Below, piece after piece: positions 5,878 to 63,987 of a stretch of DNA of 64,000 nucleotides. The position numbers and the translations under genes are program-made. The DNA is from Pseudomonadales bacterium (GTDB lineage Bacteria; Patescibacteriota; Microgenomatia; UBA1400; PJMF01): positions 534,846-598,845 of the forward strand of contig JACKFW010000001.1 of NCBI GenBank assembly GCA_020632265.1, written 5' to 3'. Under the pieces are notes generated by a model. The model worked only from the letters and a program-made list of their open reading frames with translations, did not search any database and was not told where the DNA came from. Position 1 is the stretch's first letter. Every line of letters begins with the position of its first letter.

Positions 5878-6993
5878 ATGGCAGATGCAACTAATCATAA
5901 ACCAAATTCTGATAACTTCTGGTTAACAATTAATAAACCGATATTTGGTCTTGCTCCAATGGATGGGATCACTGATCAACCATATCGTCATATTCAAAAG
6001 AAATATGGAAATCCCGACGTATTATATACAGAATTTACAAATGTTGAAGGTGTTTGCCATGGAGCCATCATCTTGCTAAAAGATTTTGAATACGATGAAA
6101 CTCAAAGACCCATTGTTGCTCAAATCTATGGAAAAACGCCAAAATACTTTAGGCAAGTTGCAACAATTCTATGTCAACTTGGTTTTGATGGCATTGATAT
6201 AAATATGGGTTGTCCTGCAAAAAGTGTTGATCAATCTGGATCTGGAGCAGCCCTCATCAAAACTCCAGAACTTGCACAAGAAATAATTAAAGCTACTCAA
6301 CAAGGAGTCGAAGATTATTTAAATGGAATTAAAGCAAAAGATTGCGAAGATATCTCAAAAAAAGTTGCCAAAGAAATTGAAATCAGGCATGCAAAATTGC
6401 CTAAAAAATTTAGACAGGCTAGAAACATTCCAGTTAGTGTTAAAACTAGGATTGGTTACTCAAAACCAGAAGTAGATCAATGGATTCCAAAATTACTTGA
6501 AATGAAACCTGCACTGATCGCAATTCATGGCAGAACTTTGAAACAACAATATTCTGGGCAAGCAGATTGGGATGAAATCAAAAAGGCCGCTAGACTCTGT
6601 CATCAAACTAATACTCTCATTCTTGGAAATGGTGATATCAAAGATATGAGCAATGCAGAAGAAAAAATAAGATCTTATGAAGTCGATGGAGTTCTAATTG
6701 GACGACTTTCTTTTGGTAATCCCTTTATATTTCAAAAAGAATCTGAAAAACAAAATAAAGAATTGCTTGGGGTGAAAAACCAAAATATATTTGAAGTCGC
6801 GCTAGATCATTGTAGAGTTTATGAACAAACTTATTCATCTGACTCAAAATATCATTTTATGCCCATGAGAAAGCACTTAGGTTGGTATGTTAAAAGTATT
6901 CCAAATGCAAAAATTGTACGCGCAGATTTATTTAAAACTACTAACTCTGATGAAGTTGAAAGCGTATTCAAAAAGTTTGGACTTATAGAATAG
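5878..6993 (+). CDS. tRNA-dihydrouridine synthase (Dus family) with an internal insertion of about 45 aa
   Basis: Conserved Dus motifs: LAPMDGITDQPYR, NMGCPAKSV, catalytic-Cys region, TIM-barrel FMN-binding pattern. Confidence 0.8.
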   Translation: MADATNHKPNSDNFWLTINKPIFGLAPMDGITDQPYRHIQKKYGNPDVLYTEFTNVEGVCHGAIILLKDFEYDETQRPIVAQIYGKTPKYFRQVATILCQLGFDGIDINMGCPAKSVDQSGSGAALIKTPELAQEIIKATQQGVEDYLNGIKAKDCEDISKKVAKEIEIRHAKLPKKFRQARNIPVSVKTRIGYSKPEVDQWIPKLLEMKPALIAIHGRTLKQQYSGQADWDEIKKAARLCHQTNTLILGNGDIKDMSNAEEKIRSYEVDGVLIGRLSFGNPFIFQKESEKQNKELLGVKNQNIFEVALDHCRVYEQTYSSDSKYHFMPMRKHLGWYVKSIPNAKIVRADLFKTTNSDEVESVFKKFGLIE

Positions 6994-7019
6994 CAAACTT
7001 CAGATATAATATATTTGAA

Positions 7020-7093
7020 GGTCGTATAGCTCAGTTGGTTAGAGCGCACGATTCACATTCGTGAGGTCCCTGGTTCGAGTCCAGGTACGACCA
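7020..7093 (+). tRNA. tRNA-Val (anticodon CAC)
   Basis: Cloverleaf read by eye. Acceptor GGTCGTA/TACGACC, D-stem GCTC/GAGC, anticodon stem CACGA/TCGTG with loop TTCACAT. Variable loop is 5 nt, T-arm CCTGG-TTCGAGT-CCAGG, discriminator A. No encoded CCA. Confidence 0.85.
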
Positions 7094-7121
7094 CAACGCA
7101 ATTTAATGATAAACTTAGATC

Positions 7122-8894
7122 ATGTCATTTTCAAAACTAAAATTGATTGGATTATTAGTTTTTATAGGTTTTATAACCTATCTTTCATCTCTTAATAACA
7201 AATTTGTTTGGGATGATGAACAATTTATCTATAATAATGCATATGTTAAAAACTTTGAAATTGGTAAAATTTTTACTGAAAATACAATAGCTGGAGCTGG
7301 AGAAATAAGTAGCTACTACCGCCCTCTGACTACTTTATCATTTGCCATGGATTACCAGTTATGGGAACTAAATCCCTTAGGATTTCACATAACAAATACT
7401 TTTTTACATATACTCTCTGGAATTATTTTGTTTTTGTTTCTGATAAATTTAAGCATTTCAAAAATTAAATCATTTTGGATTAGTACTATTTTTTTGATAC
7501 ATCCATTACAAACTGAGGCTGTTGTTTACGCAAATTCCCGTGGTGATTCTATGTATGTCTTCTGGAGTTTGTTGGGACTTTTTGCATTTTCCATGCTTTG
7601 CTTAAAAAAATATCCTAAATTTCAAATTTACGATCTAAGTTTGAAATTAGGAAAGGTTCAATTGTTGATTCTCACAGTTATTAGTTACTTGCTAAGCATA
7701 TTGGGGAAAGAAATTGGCATTGCTTCATTAGGACTATTTTTTTTAACATTTATTTATATTAATAGAAATATATTTCTTTTTCATACTAAAAATATTTCAA
7801 ACGAATTAAAAAAAATTGGAATACAATCCAGCACATTGTTATTATTATCAATTATCGCAACTGTCTATTTGATATTTAGAAAATTTATTTTGAACATTTC
7901 AACGAGTGTAAACTTTTATAATCCAAATTCTCCTTATGGATCAAGTTTATTTGTAAGATTACATACATTTTCAAAAGCGCTATGGACTTATTTCAAACTT
8001 ATAATTTATCCAACTAATTTGCACATGGAAAGAACTCTAGACATTATTACTGATTCATATTCTATTTGGTTATTTGCTTCAATTTTTTTATTCGTAATAG
8101 TCTTTATTGTTGGATATTTTGAATTAATAAAGAAACATACGGCCCTAATTTGGTTTGGTTTTTTATGGTTTATTATTATGCTCGTACCAGTCTCGGGAAT
8201 CATACCAATTAATGGTTTGATCTATGAACATTGGCTTTATATGCCAATAATTGGATTTATAATATTTACAATTGGAATAATTGCATTTGTTTTTGACAAT
8301 AAACTCAATAAAATCATTAAATATTCACTTCCAATTTTAATCATTATTTATATTGGCTTAACGATTAAACAAAATTATATTTGGGCGGATCCAATTAGAT
8401 TTTATCAATACACTCTTAATTACGTTCAGACCGCAAGATTATCTAACAATTTGGCAATGGCATATGCTCAGTCAGGTCAAAACCAACTTGCTGTTGAAAC
8501 CTACAAAAAAGCAATCGAGCTTTCTAACTATTATCCCCAGACTCATCACAATTTGGGAAATACATATCTGGCTATGAATGAAATTGAACTTGCGGAAGAT
8601 TCATTTAAAAGTGCAATTAGAATGAATAATGGGTTTTTTCCCTCTTATGGACCATTAATTAATATTTTAATTGATAAAGAACAGTATGATGAAGCTTTGC
8701 CTTTAATCAATCAACTTTATAAACAAAAACCCAATGATTTTCAAACTGGACTGATTTATTTAAACGCACTTTATAAAACTAACAAGCTTAAAGATGCTGA
8801 AGAGCAGTTACAAAATTTAAAAGATAGATTCGGCAAAAACATTAGGGCCAATGATTTAATTGATAAAGTTGTGAATGATTATACACAAAAATAA
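7122..8894 (+). CDS. Polytopic membrane protein with C-terminal TPR repeats (TMTC/PMT-like putative glycosyltransferase, DUF1736-like)
   Basis: About 11 predicted TM helices. The conserved N-terminal motif WDDEQFIYNN...YYRPLTTLSFAMDYQLW is typical of TMTC-like proteins. The C-terminal third has TPR-like repeats (LAMAYAQSGQNQLAVETYKKAIEL...). Confidence 0.55.
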   Translation: MSFSKLKLIGLLVFIGFITYLSSLNNKFVWDDEQFIYNNAYVKNFEIGKIFTENTIAGAGEISSYYRPLTTLSFAMDYQLWELNPLGFHITNTFLHILSGIILFLFLINLSISKIKSFWISTIFLIHPLQTEAVVYANSRGDSMYVFWSLLGLFAFSMLCLKKYPKFQIYDLSLKLGKVQLLILTVISYLLSILGKEIGIASLGLFFLTFIYINRNIFLFHTKNISNELKKIGIQSSTLLLLSIIATVYLIFRKFILNISTSVNFYNPNSPYGSSLFVRLHTFSKALWTYFKLIIYPTNLHMERTLDIITDSYSIWLFASIFLFVIVFIVGYFELIKKHTALIWFGFLWFIIMLVPVSGIIPINGLIYEHWLYMPIIGFIIFTIGIIAFVFDNKLNKIIKYSLPILIIIYIGLTIKQNYIWADPIRFYQYTLNYVQTARLSNNLAMAYAQSGQNQLAVETYKKAIELSNYYPQTHHNLGNTYLAMNEIELAEDSFKSAIRMNNGFFPSYGPLINILIDKEQYDEALPLINQLYKQKPNDFQTGLIYLNALYKTNKLKDAEEQLQNLKDRFGKNIRANDLIDKVVNDYTQK

Positions 8895-9613: not shown

Positions 9614-10210
9614 AATCGTATAAATTGTTTTTTCTGATTACTCAATTGTACCCAAATAGATCAACTATCTTTGTATATTACTTCAAAAAAACTAAAGCCA
9701 TTAATTATCAATATGATGTAATTTTTCAATTAAAATCTAGATATTTAATAAAAAAAGTGTATAATCTGATGGACATGGGGATGTATTGCTTTGACGTGAT
9801 ATGTACTTTAACATTTGCAGACCATCTTTGACTAAGAAAGATGTAAAACAGAGTCAAAAAATAATTGCAGATACAATTGCAACTAATGTTAAAAGCATGC
9901 TTACAGAGGTTAAATCCAATGTTGCTAGCTACTTAACACCAAATTACGCTTTCGTAGCATAATTCGGCATCAATTTAAATAATTTCATTGGCGTTTTTAA
10001 ACTTGATGATTCAACTTAAGTCAATGTGACGGGTTAGCATTCGTTTGTTGATGCAAACTTTAAGTAAAAATTGACAAAGATTGTGAAAAAAAGGTTTGTT
10101 TATTTTCCCATTTCACAGTAACAAAAACAAACTAAGTCTGTAGATAATGTTAGCTTGCTATTGCGGACACGAGGTCATTCCTCGTCATCTCCACAGATAC
10201 CTACTTATTG

Positions 10211-11008
10211 TTACCAATTGGTAAAATACTTAGAGTTTGAATGATTATTAGCAGCAATAATCCATTCACCGTCAATCCATTCAACCCAAACATTATAAGT
10301 TAAATAGTTTTTACTACCAAAAGTTACTATTTCCCCAACCCTTGTTCTTGAATCTTTAGGATTATAATTCTTATATTCAACATTCGCATTTCTCAAAAAA
10401 GTAGGTTTAATTAGAACTTGCAAGATTTGATATAAATGACTTATATCAATAATATTATGCTCAAATAATATCTTCGCAGCTTCTTGTAATAATTGATTAA
10501 TTGCTTCAGCAAAAGTTTTTCTTTTGATCTCCAAATCATCATTTGGACCTGACAAGAATACTTCTAATGCACTAATACCAGCTCCAACTCCTAGATCTGT
10601 TGAATTATCAGGAGTTTGTAGTTGATTATTTCTAATTTCTTCGTTTCGAACTAGAATTTCTAATTGTTCTTCAATTCTAGCAACAAAAGTATTTATGCTA
10701 GCTCGTCCAGATTGACGATTGTTCTCTTCCTGCCAACCGTCTAACAAAATATAACTTTCGCGACCATCTCGGTGTGTCAAATAAAGCGTAATTAAATGAA
10801 AACTGGGAAGTGTCTGTCCTAAATCAATTACAAATTGACTATCTGTATCAGTTGAACTTGCTCCATTAACCGCACTATTTACCGATACTCTGACTATTCC
10901 CATATTAACAAATTTTGATCTTCTCCTCATCAAAGCAATGAACAAATTCCTCTTTGTAAAATCGTTTTCTAACCTTAATTGATGTTCTTCAAATTCAGTT
11001 CTAGCCAT
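10211..11008 (-). CDS. Hypothetical protein (265 aa), no recognisable domain
   Basis: Long ORF with its own upstream region carrying tandem repeats. It is locally GC-richer than its neighbours. No family could be assigned by eye. Confidence 0.5.
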   Translation of the reverse strand: MARTEFEEHQLRLENDFTKRNLFIALMRRRSKFVNMGIVRVSVNSAVNGASSTDTDSQFVIDLGQTLPSFHLITLYLTHRDGRESYILLDGWQEENNRQSGRASINTFVARIEEQLEILVRNEEIRNNQLQTPDNSTDLGVGAGISALEVFLSGPNDDLEIKRKTFAEAINQLLQEAAKILFEHNIIDISHLYQILQVLIKPTFLRNANVEYKNYNPKDSRTRVGEIVTFGSKNYLTYNVWVEWIDGEWIIAANNHSNSKYFTNW

Positions 11009-11063
11009 ATTGAATTTCCTTAATATATAATTCGTTGGTACTTAAGATTCTATTCTAATCTTT

Positions 11064-11105
11064 AGATTCTTTTTACCCAATTATAGATTCTTTTTACCCA
11101 ATTAT
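11064..11105. repeat. Perfect 21-bp direct repeat x2 (AGATTCTTTTTACCCAATTAT) upstream of the 265-aa gene. A TAGCTTCTT x3 microrepeat lies at about 11208-11236.
   Basis: Read directly from the sequence. Confidence 0.8.
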
Positions 11106-11313
11106 TCCAGATATTATACACTATTTTTTGCAATTTTCAAAAAAAATAAAATCACTGATACAACATCATCCACAATACAGAAAGAATTTGACAATTGATT
11201 TTAGTTAGTTTCTTTAGCTTCTTTAGCTTCTTTATCTATTAACTTCATTTATAACTATCCTTGATAAAAGATATTCAAATAATTAATTCAGATAACTGCC
11301 AATTATATATTAT

Positions 11314-12354
11314 TTAAACATTCTTATTGATTTGATTGTTTTTAAGTTTAGAAACAGTTTTGCTAGCAACCCATACTAGTGGAATCCAAGTAATTGAATA
11401 TACTAAAACCCAGATTCCAAAATATCCAACAACCCTTAATAATTCTTTAAGTGAAGTCCAAGCTCTTAGAATTTCTTCTTTGATGGTTGGTCTAGCAGAT
11501 GGATTAAAATATCTTTCGCTATCCGCAGCTGTAATCGAAATTGAGGAGTATTCAACCTGCTGTTCAACTTGATCAAGGCTTTTTTCAGCAGCTGTAATTT
11601 GTTTTGTCAACCTATCAATTTCAATTTGAAATCTTCTCTTTTCAACTTCAGTTTTAGCATCTAACAAAGCAGCTTCTTTTAATGATTTTTGATCTAATAG
11701 AGCCTGAACGGTTTCTGTCGTACCTACCAACCTCCCAGTAATGTCACTTGCATCAATATTTTCATTCACAACTTTATCAACATTTTCAGTTACTCTTGAA
11801 GTTGCTTCCTCAAACTTTGCAACAGGAACTTTTACATACAAGTCTCCACTATTGTAATCTCCATTAGAAGAAATACTTGAATTTAACACTTTTCCATCAA
11901 TGCTTAAAAAGTATTCTTTCATTCCTCTCAAATAGCTAGGAACATCGTTTACTACAACAGAATGATATGAGGATTTTTGATAGACTCTATCATTAAGATA
12001 TAAATAATCATCAGCAAAATACGGAATTGGCATTGATCCCGTTGTGATCGAATCATTCATTTTATCTATGAGCATTGGCTCTGGCATTGGCTCTACAGGA
12101 AACTCATCTGAAACAGGAAAATCAGGACTTGGATATTGCATATAAGCATCAGTATCCCGTGTAGACTGATCCATACCTTGCATATACGGCTCCATGTCTT
12201 GCATACTCACAGCATCTTGGCCTCGCATACGACTAAAAGATGGCAATATTTGAGAATTTTTTAAGAAAGAAAATCTCGAGTTCATTGCAAATACAATTAA
12301 ACTTGTTACTACACCTAAAAATACCACTACAAAAAAAGTTTGTTTATTTTTCAT
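11314..12354 (-). CDS. Membrane-anchored protein with Met/Asp/Pro-rich low-complexity region, coiled coil and C-terminal TM hairpin (DUF4349-like architecture)
   Basis: N-terminal signal anchor (FFVVVFLGVVTSLIVFAM). Central coiled coil (EVEKRRFQIEIDRLTKQITAAEKSLDQVEQQ). C-terminal hydrophobic hairpin (VVGYFGIWVLVYSITWIPLVWVA). Confidence 0.4.
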   Translation of the reverse strand: MKNKQTFFVVVFLGVVTSLIVFAMNSRFSFLKNSQILPSFSRMRGQDAVSMQDMEPYMQGMDQSTRDTDAYMQYPSPDFPVSDEFPVEPMPEPMLIDKMNDSITTGSMPIPYFADDYLYLNDRVYQKSSYHSVVVNDVPSYLRGMKEYFLSIDGKVLNSSISSNGDYNSGDLYVKVPVAKFEEATSRVTENVDKVVNENIDASDITGRLVGTTETVQALLDQKSLKEAALLDAKTEVEKRRFQIEIDRLTKQITAAEKSLDQVEQQVEYSSISITAADSERYFNPSARPTIKEEILRAWTSLKELLRVVGYFGIWVLVYSITWIPLVWVASKTVSKLKNNQINKNV

Positions 12355-12458
12355 ATACTAGAAATTATATCAGATTCGATAATTATCTCAAATTTTTTAT
12401 AGATTTATTTTCAACATCATAAATAATAATAGTTCTGGCATTTTTTTTGAAAAAATAT

Positions 12459-14711
12459 TTAATTTTCAACTTTAGAATTTCTTAAATATTCCATGATTTT
12501 TCCAGAATTAACTTCTCTTGGTTTACTTCCTTGAGCAGGACCAACCATCCCTGCATCATATATTTGATCAAGAATTCTGGCAGCTCGATTATAACCGACA
12601 GAATATTTTCTCTGGATACTGGAAGAAGATCCTTTGCCAGTTTGAGCAACATATTTAACTACTTCATCAAATAAATCATCTCTATCAGAACTAACGGATC
12701 CAGAGCTACCCTTTTCCCCTGAAGCTTTATATTTATCAGTAACATCCTCAGAGTATTCAGGTTTCTGACCCTGAGCCTTAATAAATTCAATCATACTTTT
12801 AATTTCAACTTCAGATACAAAAGTGCCCTGAATACGACTTGGTCTAGATTGATCCGGAGGTATATAAAGCATGTCTCCTTTTCCAAGTAGTTTTTCTGCA
12901 CCTGGAGTATCAAGCACCACGCGCGAATCAGTCATACTTGAAACGTTAAAAGCAATTCGGGTAGGAATATTGGCTTTAATCAAACCGGTAATCACATCAA
13001 CAGATGGTCTTTGGGTTGCCAATACCAAATGAATTCCTACTGCACGAGCCATTTGAGCTATTCTTGTAACACTCTCTTCGACCTCTGAAGGAGCGTAAAG
13101 CATAATATCAGCCAATTCATCGATCACAATAACAATGCTTGGCATTGCAGCATGACCTGCGAGCTCATTATATCCAGCAATATTTTTAACTCCCACCTCA
13201 GCAAGTTGACGATATCTTTTATCCATCTCATGAGTTGCCCACTTCAAAGCTGAAACAACTTTTTTAGGATCTACAATAACTGGAGTTAATAAATGAGGAA
13301 TATCATTATATGCAGTAAGCTCTACTCGCTTTGGATCAACAAGAATGAACTTTACTTCATCTGGACTAGCTCTGAAAAGTATAGAACAGATAAATGTATT
13401 CACACATACGGACTTACCTGACCCAGTGGATCCAGCAATAAGTATGTGTGGCATTTGAGCAATATCTACTACTAATGGTTTTCCAGATACGTTTATTCCC
13501 AAAGCTACGGCTAATTTTGAAGGATGCTTTTTAAGAATTGGACTGCTGAGCATTTTTCTTAAAGTAACATATTGCAAAGAATAGTTAGGAACTTCAACGC
13601 CAACCAAGGACCTACCGGCGATTGGAGCTTCGATCCTTACTTGACCTCCCTTTGCAGCCAAAGCTAGAGCTAGATCAGTAGATAAACCAGTTAGTTTAGA
13701 AAGTTTAGTACCCTTAGCAATTTCAAGAGCATATTGAGTAACTGAAGGCCCGTAATTAGCCTCTTTAACTTCAGCTCTGATTCCAAATGATTCCAATGTT
13801 TCCTCAATAATATCTGCATTTTTATTAACATCTCCTCTGTCGGCTTTACCACCTTCTGAATTTGATAATAATGAAAGTGGTGGATATTCCCAAATCTTTT
13901 GTGTATTATTTGGAGTCATCAAATTCTGATCTAAATCACTGTTCACATCATCTTTGCCAATAATTTTTTCATCGCCTGATAATGCTATACCACTTGATTC
14001 ATTATCAGAAAATGCACCACCATCAACTCCCCCACTATTGATACTAAAAGAATCATTCTTATTTTTTCCCAGACTAAGACCAAGTTTTGGCAGTTTAAAA
14101 CCACCACTTGTTTTAATTTCAGCTTTATCAAATGAGAAATTCGAATCTTCCTTAACCTTAGATTTTCTATTCAAATTTAACTGTGAAAAAAATTCAGCAA
14201 TTTCATGAATAGACATCTGCGTGATGATCAATATCCCAATCATCATCAGGGCAAAAAATACAACATACGTTCCCATTGGGGTAATCAATGCTGAAAAATT
14301 GGCCGAAGTATCAAAACCAATTTTACCAGTCTTAAAAAATCCCAACCAACCAAGCATTATTAACAAAGTTCCAAGCAAAACATGAGGTTTTGACCACATC
14401 CATTTTGTTCTGAACATGACCATTCCTGAAGAAATAAATACAAATGGTAAAAACAAAAGAGAAGTTCCAAAACTTCTAACTAGATATTTGTTGAGATTCG
14501 AAAGCAAAGCACCCTGACCTGTCATGGAAACAATCACAATTAAACCTATTGAAATTAGGATTATAGCCACAACCGAATGGATTGTCTCTGTTCTAATTTT
14601 TAGTTTTAGTGGTTTTCTTTTTCTGCTTCTGCCCATACTTTTTATAAAAAAACTCAACAGCAATAATACTTTATTTATTATAGGATACACTACATTCCTC
14701 TTTGTTGGCAA
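12459..14711 (-). CDS. ftsK: DNA translocase FtsK/SpoIIIE
   Basis: N-terminal TM segments, a linker, then an FtsK motor with Walker A (GSTGSGKSV), a Walker B region (IVIVIDELADIM) and a C-terminal gamma-like winged-helix domain. Confidence 0.9.
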   Translation of the reverse strand: MPTKRNVVYPIINKVLLLLSFFIKSMGRSRKRKPLKLKIRTETIHSVVAIILISIGLIVIVSMTGQGALLSNLNKYLVRSFGTSLLFLPFVFISSGMVMFRTKWMWSKPHVLLGTLLIMLGWLGFFKTGKIGFDTSANFSALITPMGTYVVFFALMMIGILIITQMSIHEIAEFFSQLNLNRKSKVKEDSNFSFDKAEIKTSGGFKLPKLGLSLGKNKNDSFSINSGGVDGGAFSDNESSGIALSGDEKIIGKDDVNSDLDQNLMTPNNTQKIWEYPPLSLLSNSEGGKADRGDVNKNADIIEETLESFGIRAEVKEANYGPSVTQYALEIAKGTKLSKLTGLSTDLALALAAKGGQVRIEAPIAGRSLVGVEVPNYSLQYVTLRKMLSSPILKKHPSKLAVALGINVSGKPLVVDIAQMPHILIAGSTGSGKSVCVNTFICSILFRASPDEVKFILVDPKRVELTAYNDIPHLLTPVIVDPKKVVSALKWATHEMDKRYRQLAEVGVKNIAGYNELAGHAAMPSIVIVIDELADIMLYAPSEVEESVTRIAQMARAVGIHLVLATQRPSVDVITGLIKANIPTRIAFNVSSMTDSRVVLDTPGAEKLLGKGDMLYIPPDQSRPSRIQGTFVSEVEIKSMIEFIKAQGQKPEYSEDVTDKYKASGEKGSSGSVSSDRDDLFDEVVKYVAQTGKGSSSSIQRKYSVGYNRAARILDQIYDAGMVGPAQGSKPREVNSGKIMEYLRNSKVEN

Positions 14712-56246: not shown

Positions 56247-58289
56247 CTAGACCCTTACTTTTGCCTTAGGCACACCCATTAGTTTTTCAAACTCATCGCC
56301 ATCGAGGGATTCAACTTTGATCAGTTCTTGTGAAATTTCGTCTAACTGCTTGCGATATTTAATTAGAATCTCATCAGCTTTTTTTTGTCCTGCATCAATA
56401 ATTTTTTTAATTTCATTATCTACTTTTTCTTGTAAACTTTCAGAAATTTTATCTGACTCACCCCACATAGAATTATAACTTGCATCAGATTGTGGACTAA
56501 AATTCATTGGCCCAAGTGGACTCATACCATAATCATTAACCATTGCGCGAGCAATTCTTGTGGCTTTTTGGATATCACTGCTAGCACCAGCTGTAAGTTC
56601 ATTAAATACTAATTTTTCGGCCGATCTTCCACCCAATAAAACTGCGATGCTATCCATTAATTCTGATTTTGTTGTTTGTAATTTATCTTTTTCTGGTGGA
56701 GTAAGTGTAAAACCTAATGCTCTACCTCTTGAGAGAATGGATACTCTATGAACTGGATCTGCATTTGGCGAAACATGAGCAATAATTGAATGACCAATTT
56801 CATGATACGAAGTCATTTTTTTCTCCAAATCATCTTGCAGTCTCTTCTTACTTGGTCCTAGCTTAACTTTTAATGCTGCTTCTTCAATATCTTCCAAACT
56901 AATAATTTCTCTATTTGCTCGTACAACAGAAATAGCAGCTTCATTAAGCATATTTTCTATATCTGCTCCAGAAAAACCCACTGTTCTTTTGGCAACTTTT
57001 TCCCACTTTAATCCTTTCACAAAAGGTTTATTTTTTGCATGGATTTTAATAATAAACTTACGCTCTTCCAAATCCGGAAGTGCCACCAATACTCTTCGAT
57101 CAAAACGACCTGGTCTCACCAAAGCAGGGTCAAGCATGTCACCTCGATTTGTGGCCGCCATCACAATCACATTGTCATTCTGAGAAAAACCATCCATTTC
57201 TACTAATATTTGATTTAGTGTTTGCTCGCGCTCATCATGCCCGCCCATATTACCTCTGCCTCTAGCTCTACCAATAGCGTCGATTTCATCAATAAAAATG
57301 ATTGAAGGAGCTAATTTTTTAGCGGTTAAAAATAAATCTCGAGCTCTAGAAGCACCAACTCCCACAAGCATTTCCATAAATTCACTGCCGGCAATTGAAA
57401 GGAACTGCACACCTGCTTCGCCAGCAACAGCTCGGGCTAACAAAGTTTTCCCTGTGCCAGCAGGACCAACTAACAACACGCCCTTTGGAGTTCTAGCGCC
57501 AACTTTTGCATACTTCTTTGGATTTTTCAAAAAATCAACAATTTCTTCAAGTTCTTTTTTTGCTTCATCCATACCACCTACTGCAGAAAAGTTTGTATTT
57601 TGTTTGCCTTTTACAAAAAGCTTGGCTTTACTTTTACCGATGCCAAGAATACCATCTTGGCCACCTTTTGCTTGTCTAAAAATAAACAAGAAAACCACAA
57701 TCATTAACAATACTGGCAAAAATGAAAGTACTAATTTCCAAATCAATTCACTAGCAGCAACACTTTGAACTTCGAGATCAGTTTTTGCTAAATCAATTTC
57801 AGCTGCTTTAAAAATATCCACTAAATCTTGGCCGTCCTCTTTGAGCGCAATTTTTTCGGAACTGTCCTTGTATTCAGCTCTTAATTCGTTGCCAGTAATT
57901 TCAATTTTCTGAATTTTATCTTCTCTCACATCAGAAACAAGATTACTTAGAGAAATCTCATTACTGTTATCGGTTGTAAAAAGTGAAAGAATAAATGGTA
58001 AAAATAGCAATCCCAAAAAGATATACAAAAAACTTTTATTCAAGAGATTCTTTGGACTTAAATTTATTGTGTATGACTTAATAGCAACTTTTTTTGGCAA
58101 CACACTTTTGCTTTGTGAATTTTTTTCAGGTTGTAAATCGGGATTAACCACCGGATTTGTAGTAGAACTATTAGTTGGATTTGTAGCTGTACTAATAGTC
58201 GATTTTGTGACCGTAGTATTAGTTGGCTTTGTGACCACACTATTAGTAGTTGGCTTTTTAGAAGTTTTTTTTGTTTCTGTCATAATCAA
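56247..58289 (-). CDS. ftsH: ATP-dependent zinc metalloprotease FtsH with Thr/Asn/Ser-rich N-terminal extension
   Basis: Two TM helices, AAA+ domain ([19 protein letters not shown] region) and the HEIGH zinc-binding motif. About 60 extra low-complexity residues at the N-terminus. Confidence 0.9.
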
Positions 58290-61095: not shown

Positions 61096-61962
61096 TTAAA
61101 GTTCTTCAATTTGAATATTTGGTTCCATCTCAGGGGCTTCAATAAGCTTGAGATATTTTTCAGTTGTAGTAATTCTTTTATGACCAACTAGCTGAGAAAC
61201 ATAAACCAAAGGTGTACCAGCTTTAAGTTGCTCAACTATGAATGTGTGTCTTAAATCATTAACTTTTGCTTCTTTAATACCCGCAAGCCTAAAATATCTA
61301 TCAATGGCAGTTCTAATATTTCTAACTAAAAATGGTCTGCAAGTTTTTGTCAAAAACACAGTTTTTTCTCGGGCTCGTGGTCTAACTTGTAAATAGTCAG
61401 TTATTGCAGATTTTGCAGCTACGTTTAACGGAACTTTACGTGCCCCTCTTGAATTTTGAGCTTGGATAATAATTATATTACGTTCAAAATCGACATCAAT
61501 CATCTGTAAAGCGGCTAATTCACTAATTCTCATTCCAGTCTGAAGTAAAACCTCAACGACTGCTGACATACGAGCGTCACCTCTACAAGCATCTCTAAGA
61601 GCTCTGTACTCTATTTTTGAAAGCACTCTAGGAGGAGATTGCTCATATTTAGGATGAGTAATAATATCAGCAGGATTACTAGTAATTGAACCCTGAGATA
61701 CTAGGAATCTAAAAAAAGCTTTAATTGAATTAATTTTTCTTGAGATTGATTTGCCCGTATATCTTTGCTTATTTAACAAAGCCTTAAATTCATCAATATC
61801 ATCGGAAGTCACTTCATCAACCTCAGACTTACCTTTTTTGGTAACGAAAGCAACGAGTTGCTCAATATCTTTGCTGTAAGCTATAATGGTTGCATTAGCC
61901 TTACCAGACTCTTTAAGTTTTTCGGTAAACAATGCTTGCGCATCTAATAAAGTAACTTGCAT
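61096..61962 (-). CDS. Tyrosine site-specific recombinase, XerC/XerD family
   Basis: N-terminal core-binding (SAM-like) domain and a C-terminal catalytic domain with R...HxxR...Y residues (RISELAAL, LRHTFIV, LVGHKRITTTEKYL). Its size (288 aa) is typical of Xer rather than a phage integrase. Confidence 0.8.
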   Translation of the reverse strand: MQVTLLDAQALFTEKLKESGKANATIIAYSKDIEQLVAFVTKKGKSEVDEVTSDDIDEFKALLNKQRYTGKSISRKINSIKAFFRFLVSQGSITSNPADIITHPKYEQSPPRVLSKIEYRALRDACRGDARMSAVVEVLLQTGMRISELAALQMIDVDFERNIIIIQAQNSRGARKVPLNVAAKSAITDYLQVRPRAREKTVFLTKTCRPFLVRNIRTAIDRYFRLAGIKEAKVNDLRHTFIVEQLKAGTPLVYVSQLVGHKRITTTEKYLKLIEAPEMEPNIQIEEL

Positions 61963-62067
61963 AATGATTCAAATCTAGCTAATTATACTATGTTTATAAT
62001 TTTATTTATCAAGTATTTAATCTTGAACATCAATGTCTTATAATATCATGAAGATGGATTTTTATCA

Positions 62068-62424
62068 ATGACTAAGTTAATTTATCACCCTTTAATTGCA
62101 ATTTTGGTTACTATATTGGCAATTTTTACCGTTTTCTCTTTACTCAAACGTACTCAAAAAACTGAAGTGTCTACTCAAAATATCGAAAATTTGGAGAATG
62201 AAGTTAAAATTATGTCAGGAGAAGTCATGGATCTAGAAGAAAAGATCATTGAAACTGAATCAGAAGAATATAAAGAGAAAATTGTAAGAAATGAGTTATT
62301 ACTGCAAAAACCTGGAGAAATTGTAGTCCAATTGCCAGATGCCCAGACTGAAAAAGAGGTTATTATTGAAAAAAAAGATGAAAGCAAACCTATAGAACAA
62401 TGGATTAAACTATTTAATTTTTAA
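62068..62424 (+). CDS. Small TM plus coiled-coil protein, FtsB/DivIC-like septum-formation initiator
   Basis: One N-terminal TM helix, a coiled coil, then IVRNELLLQKPGEIVVQLPD, which resembles the FtsB signature ARNELGMVKPGETFYRL. Confidence 0.45.
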   Translation: MTKLIYHPLIAILVTILAIFTVFSLLKRTQKTEVSTQNIENLENEVKIMSGEVMDLEEKIIETESEEYKEKIVRNELLLQKPGEIVVQLPDAQTEKEVIIEKKDESKPIEQWIKLFNF

Positions 62425-62486
62425 GATTGATGTCTTGTAATAATATACAAATGAAGATTTTATGGAATTCTAGGCAAAAAATAGTG

Positions 62487-62560
62487 TAGCAAGGGAGAGA
62501 TTTGAACTCTCGACCTTCGGTTTATGAATCCGATGCTCTAACCAGCTGAGCTACCTTGCC
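62487..62560 (-). tRNA. tRNA with anticodon CAT (Met; or Ile2 if lysidinylated)
   Basis: Minus-strand cloverleaf GGCAAGG-TA-GCTC-AGCTGGTTA-GAGC-A-TCGGA-TTCATAA-ACCGA-AGGTC-GAGAG-TTCAAAT-CTCTC-CCTTGCT-A. It has a G1-U72 wobble. Confidence 0.8.
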
Positions 62561-62667
62561 TATTTGTAATTTTTTCTCGACCAAAACTACTTTAGGATCG
62601 CAGGTAATTATAACAGAACTTTGACTTTTATCTAGAAAGTAATTATAATACCGGTCTGTCACATAGA

Positions 62668-62736
62668 CATAAAAACGCGCGGGATAGTGTACGGTGCACG
62701 TGAGGCTCATAATCTCGCAGGCTGGGTTCGACTCCC
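62668..62736 (+). tRNA. Probable second CAT-anticodon tRNA (compact, 69 nt; C1xA72 mismatch)
   Basis: CGCGGGA-TA-[GTG-TACGGTG-CAC]-G-TGAGG-CTCATAA-TCTCG-CAGG-CTGGG-TTCGACT-CCCAG-TCCCGCA-A. The T-arm and acceptor are good. The D-arm is short and the anticodon stem has two G-U pairs. A strong terminator follows. Confidence 0.5.
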
Positions 62737-62748
62737 AGTCCCGCAAAT

Positions 62749-62771
62749 TAAATAAAATGACTCCCTCTGGG
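62749..62771 (+). terminator. Rho-independent terminator (ACTCCC-TCTG-GGGAGT followed by T7) immediately after the plus-strand tRNA
   Basis: Read directly from the sequence. Confidence 0.8.
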
Positions 62772-62825
62772 AGTTTTTTTATTTAAGTGTGTGGTTAACT
62801 TTGAGTTGTTTGTCGTAGACAAAAC

Positions 62826-63112
62826 GAATCTGACCGAAGCGTAAGCGAGGGAATGTCCGAAGTGGAGACGAAGGACCCAGTCCCGCAACAATTAATGAAG
62901 ATGGCGACATAAGTCGTCTTTTTAATAATTGATGTGACTGATTTTGATGTCATTAACAAAAGTTGATTTGAATCTTGACTGAATTCTATGAAGGAATTTC
63001 CGGATTATAAATGGAGGATTGACCGAATTTCTGCGAGGGAGTGTCTGAAGCATAGGAGGAGAACCCAGTCACGCAAAATTCAATATAGAAGACAACCATT
63101 AGGTTGTTTTTT
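62826..63112 (+). repeat. Two homologous degenerate tRNA-like units (about 62826-62890 and 63010-63078). Each ends in the tRNA 3'-end sequence CCCAGTC(C/A)CGCAA and each is followed by its own hairpin-plus-T-run terminator (about 62896-62925 and 63092-63112).
   Basis: The units are about 75% identical to each other. Each carries a 5' acceptor/D-like segment GCGAGGGA(A/G)TGTC (compare the tRNA 5' end CGCGGGATAGTGT) and a 13-nt segment that matches the 3' end of the adjacent tRNA exactly or with 1 mismatch. The anticodon and T-loop regions are missing. Confidence 0.6.
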
Positions 63113-63126
63113 AACTTAAAACAAAA

Positions 63127-63987
63127 CTAGAGTTCTCTAGCAACATATGAATTATGAGTCAAATCATATCCATTAAATGCAAATATCTCAGACAAAGAAA
63201 CTGGATCTTTATCCTCACAGTATGTTGATGTTAAATGCTTAATTGTCATTTGATAATTTGACATTGCCCCAGAAATTCCTGGTACCAATATTTTTTTATT
63301 GCCAGTTCTCCGCCCCACTTCTGCTATGGCATTTATAAACTTTTCACAAAATATTTCCATATCATAAGCACCCTCATTTGGTATGTTAATTGCTCTAACA
63401 AGTAAGGCCTTCTCACCTGATTTTAATTGAACCTGGAATACAAGTCCTGTACCAACTAACTCAGCAGGTTCCTTTGCTGTATCGATAAATTTATAGGGAG
63501 TAACTTTCCAATTGCGCAACATAGATTGTTCAAATGTATAACATGCATTAGCAACATATCCAGACATTTCTCCAATCAATCCTTTATCTGGGATCATATC
63601 AACACTTCGTTGTGAATTAAGATCAGTCTTCTCAATATTAGGAATATCTTCTTTTAATACACCAACTACACCAGCAAAAATCCCTTTTAATCTTTTTAAT
63701 TGTTTTTTTCTTTTTGTATTAGAGAAAAATTCTCTTGTCTTAACAGACCAGTACGGACTACTCTCCTCAGATCCAAAGTTTATGGCATGATGTTTAATAA
63801 GTTCGTCATACACATTAATTGTGGTTAATAAAGCCTTTGGATTCAACTCTGTTACAGCCGCCAAATTTTGATACTTATCTCGAAGAGGACCATTATTCAA
63901 AATTCTGGAGAAAACTAATCGTTGCACCAAAACCTCCCACTGTTCTGATTGTTGTTTGTCAGGGTCAAACATCCCTATTATCTGCAA
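63127..63987 (-). CDS. Hypothetical protein (at least 286 aa; may extend past the window edge)
   Basis: A long ORF ending at the window boundary. No motifs recognised. Confidence 0.45.
   Translation of the reverse strand: MQIIGMFDPDKQQSEQWEVLVQRLVFSRILNNGPLRDKYQNLAAVTELNPKALLTTINVYDELIKHHAINFGSEESSPYWSVKTREFFSNTKRKKQLKRLKGIFAGVVGVLKEDIPNIEKTDLNSQRSVDMIPDKGLIGEMSGYVANACYTFEQSMLRNWKVTPYKFIDTAKEPAELVGTGLVFQVQLKSGEKALLVRAINIPNEGAYDMEIFCEKFINAIAEVGRRTGNKKILVPGISGAMSNYQMTIKHLTSTYCEDKDPVSLSEIFAFNGYDLTHNSYVAREL

Follow-up and report, generated by a model that had tools for sequence, protein, structure and literature searches.

Units closed by copies of the initiator-tRNA 3' end share a structurally conserved two-hairpin RNA module in Patescibacteria: a possible counterpart of the E. 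coli tRNA-linked repeats

What are two short non-coding units that stand directly behind an initiator tRNA gene, each of them closed by a copy of the end of that gene? The question is raised by a stretch of 64,000 nucleotides of contig JACKFW010000001.1, from a low-GC Patescibacterium, which was analysed over its whole length and is called the window below. Towards the right end of the window, a gene for an Xer-type tyrosine recombinase (xer) is accompanied by two divergent tRNA genes with a CAT anticodon, the second of which is followed by the two units, here named A and B. A first-pass annotation of the sequence had described these elements, which were all found where it had placed them, and had read the units either as a scar of serial integrations at the tRNA gene or as a small family of tRNA-like RNAs. 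The explanation that we prefer, with a probability of roughly one half, is another: by analogy, the units may be the Patescibacterial counterpart of the tRNA-linked repeats (TLRs) of Escherichia coli, that is, non-coding cassettes whose read-through RNAs would be trimmed at a tRNA-like tail and whose array would be remodelled by recombination.

The repeated tRNA end and the RNA module

The 3' end of the initiator tRNA (tRNA-iMet) gene occurs three times in the window. The 13-mer CCCAGTCCCGCAA forms the end of the tRNA itself (62734-62746), is repeated exactly at 62876-62888 and with one mismatch at 63064-63076, as the first-pass annotation had reported; 0.22 matches are expected, and three were reached in 0 of 100 shuffles. 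The copies are spaced at 142 and 188 nucleotides (nt), which are the lengths of the two units. Units A and B are 72% identical across 64 ungapped nt, close to the earlier estimate of about 75%, and have in common an 18-mer, GCGAGGGARTGTCYGAAG, that is found nowhere else (two matches, 0.02 expected). Neither unit contains an open reading frame (ORF) and there is no cargo gene between the repeats in the window, which agrees with the earlier description. Each unit had also been credited with a terminator of its own; that of unit A is a scan match, while on the plus strand that of unit B is a fold with a following T-run. The terminator directly 3' of the tRNA, T1, is an inverted repeat with arms of 18 nt and a complementarity of 89%. 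The coordinates of all features are collected in Table 1.

For comparison, 80 related species (746 kb in all) were gathered by anchoring on the recombinase. Their loci are given L-numbers here, and the closest recombinase-matched records carry the labels Pacebacteria, Paceibacterota, Woesebacteria or Microgenomates. The tail of the unit follows the lineage variants of the local tRNA (CCCAG or CCTAG; GTCCC or else GTTCC, GCCCC or GATCC): the mean identity between a tail and the tRNA of its own genome is 12.2 of 14 positions, versus 11.2 when the tails are permuted among genomes, and the observed value was reached in one of 10000 permutations. In some genomes, the identity runs 1-4 nt past the discriminator base, and in relatives it extends to up to 17 nt.

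Between leader and tail, the units contain a module of about 46 nt, the boundaries of which were taken from iterative nhmmer searches. It reads 5'-UGA-CC-GA-GC[loop]GC-GA-GG-GAAU-GUCC-GRA-GY[NNNN]RC-GRA-GGAC and is made up of two hairpins, H1 and H2, with symmetric, purine-rich (G.A) internal loops. Three copies are present in the window, one in unit A and two in unit B. In an alignment of 34 distinct copies, 93.6% of the cells of the proposed two-hairpin structure are paired, and nine of the eleven pairs have changes on both sides; the observed values were reached in 0 of 500 column shuffles. As a control, the partners were slid by one to three columns, upon which only 20-50% pair. RNAalifold independently predicts the same two hairpins. 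These tests show the module to be under selection for structure. Kept as sequence are the internal loops, GA/GA in H1 and GRA/GRA in H2, and the GGGAAU linker. Cells with G:U are more frequent than cells with A:C (11 versus about 5) and the purine loops occur on the module strand only, as would suit an RNA of this polarity, or at any rate a single strand.

From the aligned copies, a covariance model, R1, was built. In the window, it finds module A (62827-62879, 64 bits, E = 7.8e-18), module B1 (62972-63022, 54.6 bits) and module B2 (63023-63067, 28.1 bits, E = 7.4e-07), and the next best match across the 64 kb scores 9 bits. R1 recovers 23 of the 25 matches of a metagenome pattern scan, the other two of which look like chance, and detects copies outside its training set in L107-L116 with scores of 51-67 bits. 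No Rfam family was found in the units, in sensitive mode at the locus (E<=10) or in gathering mode on the window and 14 related loci; only tRNA and tmRNA were matched. Judged from these alignments and database comparisons, the module is a previously undescribed, structurally conserved RNA motif that also exists outside tRNA loci. In unit A, the leader contains a small covarying hairpin and is complementary to the start of the module, and this conserved leader looks like a part of the RNA.

Two orthologous copies that do not have a tail are located upstream of a trpB-like gene (L105, residues 3495-3515, and L038, 6505-6522). In these, the module is followed by CUCCUCC or CUCCUU, complementary to the 3' strand of H2 (GGAGGA or GAAGGA), and in these two cases an alternative pairing with that strand could form.

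The first-pass annotation had taken the units for degenerate tRNA-like sequences. This did not hold: ARAGORN finds only the two tRNAs at the locus, the Rfam tRNA model does not match either unit at E<=10, and what the units contain instead is the conserved module. The acceptor/D-like stretch described in them does correspond to a real similarity, between GCGAGGGAATGT in the unit and GCGGGATAGTGT in the tRNA (11 of 16 ungapped positions by eye; the two are also aligned by MAFFT), but it belongs to the conserved 3' strand of H1, which together with the linker makes up GCGAGGGAAUGU, and the units are not scored as tRNA.

Table 1. Features of the initiator-tRNA locus in the window (positions are those of the whole stretch).
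Feature	Position	Strand	Evidence or remark
Xer-like tyrosine recombinase, 288 amino acids	61096-61962	-	Pfam Phage_integrase and SAM-like N-terminal domain
DivIC/FtsB-like septum protein gene, divergent from xer	62068-62424	+	Pfam DivIC, 5.7e-09
Elongator-type tRNA-Met(CAT)	62486-62560	-	ARAGORN; Rfam tRNA, 70.5 bits
Sigma-70-like promoter of the initiator tRNA, TTGACT-17-TATAAT, 11/12 match	62621-62649	+	promoter scan
Initiator-type tRNA-Met(CAT), 69 nt, C1xA72 mismatch, no encoded CCA	62678-62746	+	ARAGORN; Rfam tRNA, 42.6 bits; sequence reading
Terminator T1, long A-tract/GC-stem/T-tract hairpin directly 3' of tRNA-iMet	62748-62786	+	scan match 62759-62775
Unit A, whole	62747-62888	+	142 nt, closed by a copy of the tRNA 3' end
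Unit A leader, TGTGGTTAACTTTGAGTTG and hairpin 62809-62823; kept in relatives; without sigma-70-like promoter	62787-62829	+	
Module A, two-hairpin, GA-rich (H1 CCGA..GCGAGG; H2 GUCC GAA GU-GGAG-AC GAA GGAC)	62830-62876	+	R1; nhmmer 4e-11
Tail A, identical to the final 13 nt of the tRNA, CCCAGTCCCGCAA	62876-62888	+	
Terminator 3' of unit A, GGCGAC-ATAA-GTCGTC and T-run	62903-62923	+	scan match 62903-62918; fold
Unit B, whole	62889-63076	+	188 nt, closed by a copy of the tRNA 3' end
Unit B leader	62924-62975	+	
Module B1, CU/AG variant of H1	62976-63018	+	R1; ortholog of the leading module in the two-module units of L002 and L107
Module B2, less well preserved, with one mismatch in the lower H2 stem	63020-63064	+	R1
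Tail B, 12/13 nt copy of the tRNA 3' end, CCCAGTCACGCAA	63064-63076	+	
Hairpin and T-run 3' of unit B	63090-63113 (hairpin 63092-63107)		scan lists minus strand only; plus-strand role from fold and following T-run

Distribution and remodelling in relatives

A search for other copies had been proposed in the first-pass annotation. Besides the three modules of the window, it found the module in dozens of related Patescibacteria, mostly 3' of tRNA-iMet; within the 746 kb of sequence from the 80 species, hardly any module lies elsewhere than downstream of this gene. The unit stands directly 3' of tRNA-iMet, on the same strand, in more than 15 related genomes, and wherever a same-strand upstream gene is present the module is co-oriented with it and with its terminator. 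A single contig of 747 kb, Ga0075855_11, contains at least three copies.

Units are gained and lost at the repeats. Loci L044 and L055 differ by a clean indel of 175 nt, which comprises one whole unit and is bounded by CCTAGTCCCGCAAC. Loci L081 and L102 are identical from GCAAC onwards, through terminator, leader, module and tail; upstream of GCAAC, one of the two has a real tRNA and the other a degenerate, tRNA-3'-like end of foreign DNA. In the closest relatives (L002 and L107-L116, with a recombinase that is 92% identical), tRNA-iMet is followed by a Fic gene or by a DUF6922/AbiEii toxin-antitoxin pair, together with other genes. These islands end before a block consisting of a tRNA remnant, terminator, leader, two modules and tail, of which L002 holds two. 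No recombinase was found in the islands of L002, L107-L116, L086, L096 and L102. As far as these comparisons go, the initiator-tRNA 3' end and its copies are recombination hotspots, and the window shows their cargo-free state.

The distal end of the accessory islands (Fic, AbiEii and others) is marked by a conserved, degenerate tRNA-3'-like sequence, GGTTC(G/T)GATATC(C/G)TCCCACATTC(G/T)C, located just before the terminator and the unit. It was seen in L002 (reverse-complement, around 6545-6570 and 8640-8665), L086, L102 and L107 (3232-3262), and extends over the start of a short minus-strand ORF that is conserved (MWEDIRT...). In L057, a 17-nt repeat of the tRNA-iMet 3' end lies 53 nt downstream of the gene, with an unrelated spacer and no module, so the tRNA end is also duplicated without the module.

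A tRNA-linked repeat analogue and its competitors

The E. coli TLRs have been on record since 1978 (Egan and Landy). At the tyrT-tyrV-rttR locus of E. coli K-12, three tandem units of 178 nt overlap the tRNA end. In all, 22 such sequences are known from ten loci, with one to five per locus, and their last 18-19 bp are identical to the 3' terminus of the tRNA or 5S gene that precedes them (PMC8144298). The repeats rrA, rrB and rrF, which follow 5S genes, are flanked by two terminators; read-through gives rise to their transcripts, which are processed afterwards (Stenum et al. 2021, PMC8144298). Most E. coli TLRs are still without a known function (PMC8144298).

The Patescibacterial units resemble these repeats (rttR/RtT, RrA/RrB/RrF) in several respects. 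They are non-coding, lie directly 3' of a stable-RNA gene on the same strand, two of them here against the one to five per locus, and each is closed by a repeat of that gene's 3' terminus. The dual-terminator layout is the same, with units that do not have a sigma-70-like promoter of their own, GGA and purine motifs are abundant, and the units are arranged in tandem arrays, with 142 and 188 nt here as compared to 178 nt at tyrT. There are also differences. The repeat is 13-17 nt long instead of 18-19 nt and the tail does not include CCA, since CCA is not encoded in the tRNA-iMet gene. Common to the units is a two-hairpin module, conserved and covarying, which is also found away from tRNA genes; and the units belong to another phylum, the Patescibacteria.

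If the units are such an analogue, their RNAs would be made as follows. The promoter scan found no plus-strand sigma-70-like promoter across 62750-63120, and a sigma-70-like site is present between tRNA and module in one of 15 loci, where it is weak, versus 11 of 15 upstream of tRNA-iMet, where its position is constant. Some of the transcripts from the tRNA-iMet promoter would read through T1 and then through the terminator of unit A. Pre-tRNAs without CCA are cut after the discriminator base by RNase Z, and 3' processing of this type would release the trailer from the tRNA-iMet transcript. By pairing with the GCGAGGG stretch of the module, the tail could form an acceptor-like helix, stacked on H2, that would guide the enzyme to the same cut where each unit ends, and the resulting RNAs would be about 142 nt (62747-62888) and 188 nt (62889-63076) long. 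Their abundance would report the transcription of the initiator tRNA gene. The conserved purine loops suggest a platform for protein binding, which is the most likely role for the GA-loop hairpins by analogy with RrA, RrB and RrF, to which Hfq and CsrA bind. Homologous or site-specific recombination, with the identical tRNA 3' ends as its sites, would make the array grow or shrink, and would be the route by which islands enter in relatives.

A small RNA derived from a tRNA trailer is already known in 3'ETS-leuZ (cited in PMC8144298). As in that case, the RNA proposed here would be freed from the 3' trailer of a tRNA by tRNA processing, with an abundance tied to transcription of the tRNA. Unlike in 3'ETS-leuZ, the trailer would have to pass a terminator, and it would carry another 3' end that resembles that of the tRNA, as well as copies of a structured module.

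Several observations weigh against a TLR analogue. There is no homology to the E. coli repeats: the units have no match to the Rfam family RtT at E<=10 and R1 finds nothing at tyrT-rttR, so that the likeness is one of layout and not of common descent. T1 looks like a good terminator, which argues against much read-through. The acceptor-like helix is 91% pairable, but no covariation beyond that of shuffled alignments was found (186 of 500), and the helix competes with the covarying hairpin H1. The small tRNA-like RNA family of the first-pass annotation is borne out in the main by the conserved, covarying structured module in many relatives, whereas a tRNA-derived minihelix is not demonstrable. 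Conservation is inflated at 21 bases of the alignment, since 23 of the modules came from the metagenome pattern scan, in which these bases were fixed; neither the covarying positions of H1 nor those of the inner H2 stem are among them. The unit is carried by about 9-12 of the approximately 35 related species in which tRNA-iMet is in view, and with only about a quarter to a third of species having it, it must be dispensable. Finally, modules without a tail are found in other lineages 0-2 nt past the terminator T-runs of several genes, among them tuf, ftsZ and an HU gene, upstream of the TTGCAA-17-TATAAT promoters from which tRNA and glyS genes are read, and at differing positions inside otherwise homologous regions. 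The tail is hence not essential to the module, which may be selfish or cis-acting. What is basic is the module, the tRNA-like tail being a feature of the tRNA-linked context.

Genomic islands integrate at tRNA 3' ends, where they leave attL and attR direct repeats, and some cis-mobilisable elements do so without an integrase. The units might accordingly be inert attachment scars, or mini-islands without cargo, in the 3' end of tRNA-iMet, with the tails as attR cores, a terminator of their own at the left end, the module in the arm beside the attachment core and an RNA that is without function. Much at the locus looks like this. Each unit lies between direct repeats of the tRNA 3' end, the units accrete in tandem, and the identity goes 1-4 nt past the tRNA in some genomes. 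Empty-site variants exist: presence or absence changes exactly at the repeat between L044 and L055, L081 and L102 are identical downstream of GCAAC and differ upstream, and L057 has a tRNA-end repeat of 17 nt without a module. Relatives hold toxin-antitoxin, Abi and Fic islands at the same junction, with Fic, AbiEii/DUF6922, PIN and other accessory genes placed between the tRNA and the block of remnant, terminator and unit. The first-pass idea of a scar is borne out to this extent, that the repeats bound units and islands which are gained or lost in relatives. The module, however, is too conserved and too structured for a scar. It is kept across lineages with Xer proteins that are only 73-80% identical, compensatory changes preserve its hairpins, its unpaired purines are preserved, and it also occurs at sites far from any tRNA-like repeat. 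The units differ from tRNA-site islands in their small size (142-188 nt), in being non-coding and in having a conserved RNA motif between the repeats, not arbitrary cargo; no integrase was found in any island or unit examined, and a pattern scan of a viral contig collection gave 0 matches. We regard inert scars as unlikely.

REP/BIME and Correia or MITE-type elements are short, structured, multi-copy intergenic repeats, often located beside terminators. The module shares all of these properties, and could be a selfish dispersed repeat of this kind that favours terminator T-runs, for which tRNA-iMet is a tolerated landing site, the element having then been duplicated with the tRNA end. Several copies per genome are present in some lineages (three loci in Ga0075855_11), copies lie 0-2 nt past terminator T-runs in L084, L092/098/101, L105 and L038b, insertion positions differ in homologous promoter regions (L083/L090 versus L099/L104), and L107 and L109 encode the same Xer protein and differ in module type. 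Such an origin is nevertheless improbable. Terminal inverted repeats, target-site duplications or a consistent target sequence are not visible, and modules occur almost only at tRNA-iMet, both in the 64-kb window and in the 746 kb of the relatives; the copy number is very low and mostly a single locus is occupied. Conserved unpaired purines in non-palindromic internal loops and a strict strand orientation are found more typically in functional RNAs than at the ends of transposons.

The remaining explanations involve the recombinase. On the NCBIfam models, it scores 162 for XerC (cut-off 335), 160 for XerD (330) and 161 for archaeal XerA (220), all below the equivalog cut-offs, and by sequence it can be called Xer-like but cannot be placed in a subfamily. 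The best 120 homologues listed are 76-100% identical and all about 288 amino acids long. The xer gene is divergently paired with divIC in about 60 of the 80 related genomes, whatever adjoins the pair, is present as a single copy in the window, and is equally conserved in genomes without units or without a tRNA nearby. One other contig with an identical recombinase was found, and it breaks off at divIC. Its classification, which the first-pass annotation had called for, is settled as to context, a single-copy core gene in conserved surroundings, and not as to a place in XerC or XerD. Judged from this context, the recombinase is a housekeeping Xer-type enzyme and not an island integrase, and its proximity to the tRNA is conserved gene order. 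The spacer between xer and divIC contains a conserved motif, GTCTTATAATATCAT (62030-62050 in the window, and in most loci), which probably represents the -10 element of the divIC promoter and illustrates the form of promoters in this clade. It is the only conserved motif of the spacer, and no dif-like palindrome was recognised there or at the repeats. The link between recombinase and repeats drawn in the first-pass annotation is not supported, given the xer-divIC synteny with or without units or tRNA and the islands without integrase.

A long shot is a new cassette system that works at two levels, in which the copies of the tRNA-iMet 3' end and the GA-loop modules would be both recombination and processing sites. 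At the DNA level, toxin-antitoxin, Abi and Fic genes without an integrase, and RNA cassettes, would be captured and shuffled beside the single host Xer in the manner of an integron or of an IMEX (integrative mobile element exploiting host Xer); at the RNA level, small RNAs with tRNA-like ends, possibly tagged with CCA, would be released from read-through transcripts of the initiator tRNA gene.

Cassettes that act at the DNA level, with tRNA 3' ends and folded modules as sites for the host Xer and an integron- or IMEX-like array capturing genes without an integrase, are very unlikely. The islands do not have an integrase, many genomes have a tyrosine recombinase at a distance of 0.7-5 kb, the recombinase of the window scores about equally on the archaeal XerA/'integron integrase' model and on XerC and XerD, and blocks of gene or genes, remnant, unit and tail are repeated in L002. 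Against this, the proximity of xer and tRNA is ordinary conserved gene order, Xer is equally conserved where units are absent or the tRNA is not nearby, modules are also located at sites without repeat or island, and a dif-like palindrome was not recognised at the repeats; the positive evidence does not go beyond proximity and islands without integrase.

Disfavoured most of all, and scarcely credible, is that the units are decaying tandem duplicates of the tRNA-iMet gene and its terminator, internally deleted pseudogenes without function: MAFFT does align both unit ends and the terminators with the tRNA cassette, and the module stretch GCGAGGGAATGTCCGG matches the 5' part of the tRNA at 11 of 16 ungapped positions by eye, but the interior of the unit is not tRNA-like, is the best-conserved and covarying portion across deep lineages, the opposite of decay, and is also found without any tRNA remnant.

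Other candidates were tried and rejected. L038 reads CUGAUGAG-stem-CGAA, reminiscent of a hammerhead ribozyme, but the consensus is CUGACCGAG, the A15.1-U16.1 pair would be reversed and no ribozyme model matches. Resemblances to fragments of 5S rRNA, the sarcin-ricin loop or SRP RNA are not supported by any Rfam model. A small ORF from the AUG in GGGAAUGUCC stops at inconsistent places, modules of the B1 type have no AUG, and the substitutions are paired (GU..AC to GC..GC) and not synonymous. CsrA-type sites with GGA in a loop are not supported, as the apical loop of H2 shows no conserved GGA, and a type III toxin-antitoxin (ToxI-like) repeat array was discarded since there is no same-strand downstream toxin gene. 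No sigma-70-like site was found that would make a promoter of the conserved leader, in the xer-divIC spacer, considered for a dif site, only a promoter motif is conserved, and a phage origin was dropped on the 0 matches in viral contigs.

Neighbouring features and meaning

Downstream of unit B, an orphan ORF (63127-63987, minus strand, 286 amino acids) is convergent on the unit B hairpin, which is probably bidirectional and also terminates this gene. Searches of Pfam, NCBIfam, PADLOC and PHROG gave no match to the ORF, and none of the related loci contains a homologue, which fits a variable region downstream of tRNA-iMet. Elsewhere in the window, a tmRNA gene (9777-10196, plus strand, 76 bits) and a tRNA-Val(CAC) gene (7020-7094, plus strand) are ordinary and unrelated to the units.

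The divergent pair of tRNA-Met and tRNA-iMet (62486-62746 in the window) is inverted relative to xer-divIC in most relatives (L003, L009-L064); the orientation of the window is shared only by L001, L002, L057 and L107-L116, which indicates a small inversion polymorphism around the tRNA pair. In L040 (reverse-complement, around 7000-7105), the 3' half of the initiator tRNA is present from the anticodon loop on, preceded by unrelated sequence and without an ARAGORN call; this tRNA-iMet may contain an intron. Arrays of a promoter-like repeat of about 37 nt (TTGCATCTTTCGTACC...GGTCCGAAAT) are located at L082 (1563-1680), L090 (500-620) and L099 (7380-7455), upstream of the TTGCAA-17-TATAAT promoters of tRNA and glyS genes, with the module inserted at varying points within them. 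In the 92%-related strains L107-L112, FtsH (around 10494-12867) has 1072 amino acids and contains an intein with a LAGLIDADG endonuclease, while the FtsH of the window (56247-58289) has 680 amino acids and no intein. In the same strains, an aminotransferase is shortened to 134 amino acids and there is an extra gene for a PALP enzyme.

In the explanation that we prefer, a TLR analogue, what is known is the TLR layout; what is new is its occurrence in a distant phylum, without homology to E. coli, and on the base of a conserved RNA module. The arrangement of a stable-RNA gene, a terminator and a unit ending in the 3' end of that same gene is now seen in a very distant, genome-reduced phylum, which suggests that the layout itself is selected and is not an enterobacterial accident. 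The compact motif of about 46 nt is available for testing of protein partners, and adds an unannotated RNA family for the Patescibacteria, whose repertoire of non-coding RNAs is poorly known. In these organisms, the 3' end of the initiator tRNA also stands out as a hotspot for the exchange of toxin-antitoxin and defence genes.

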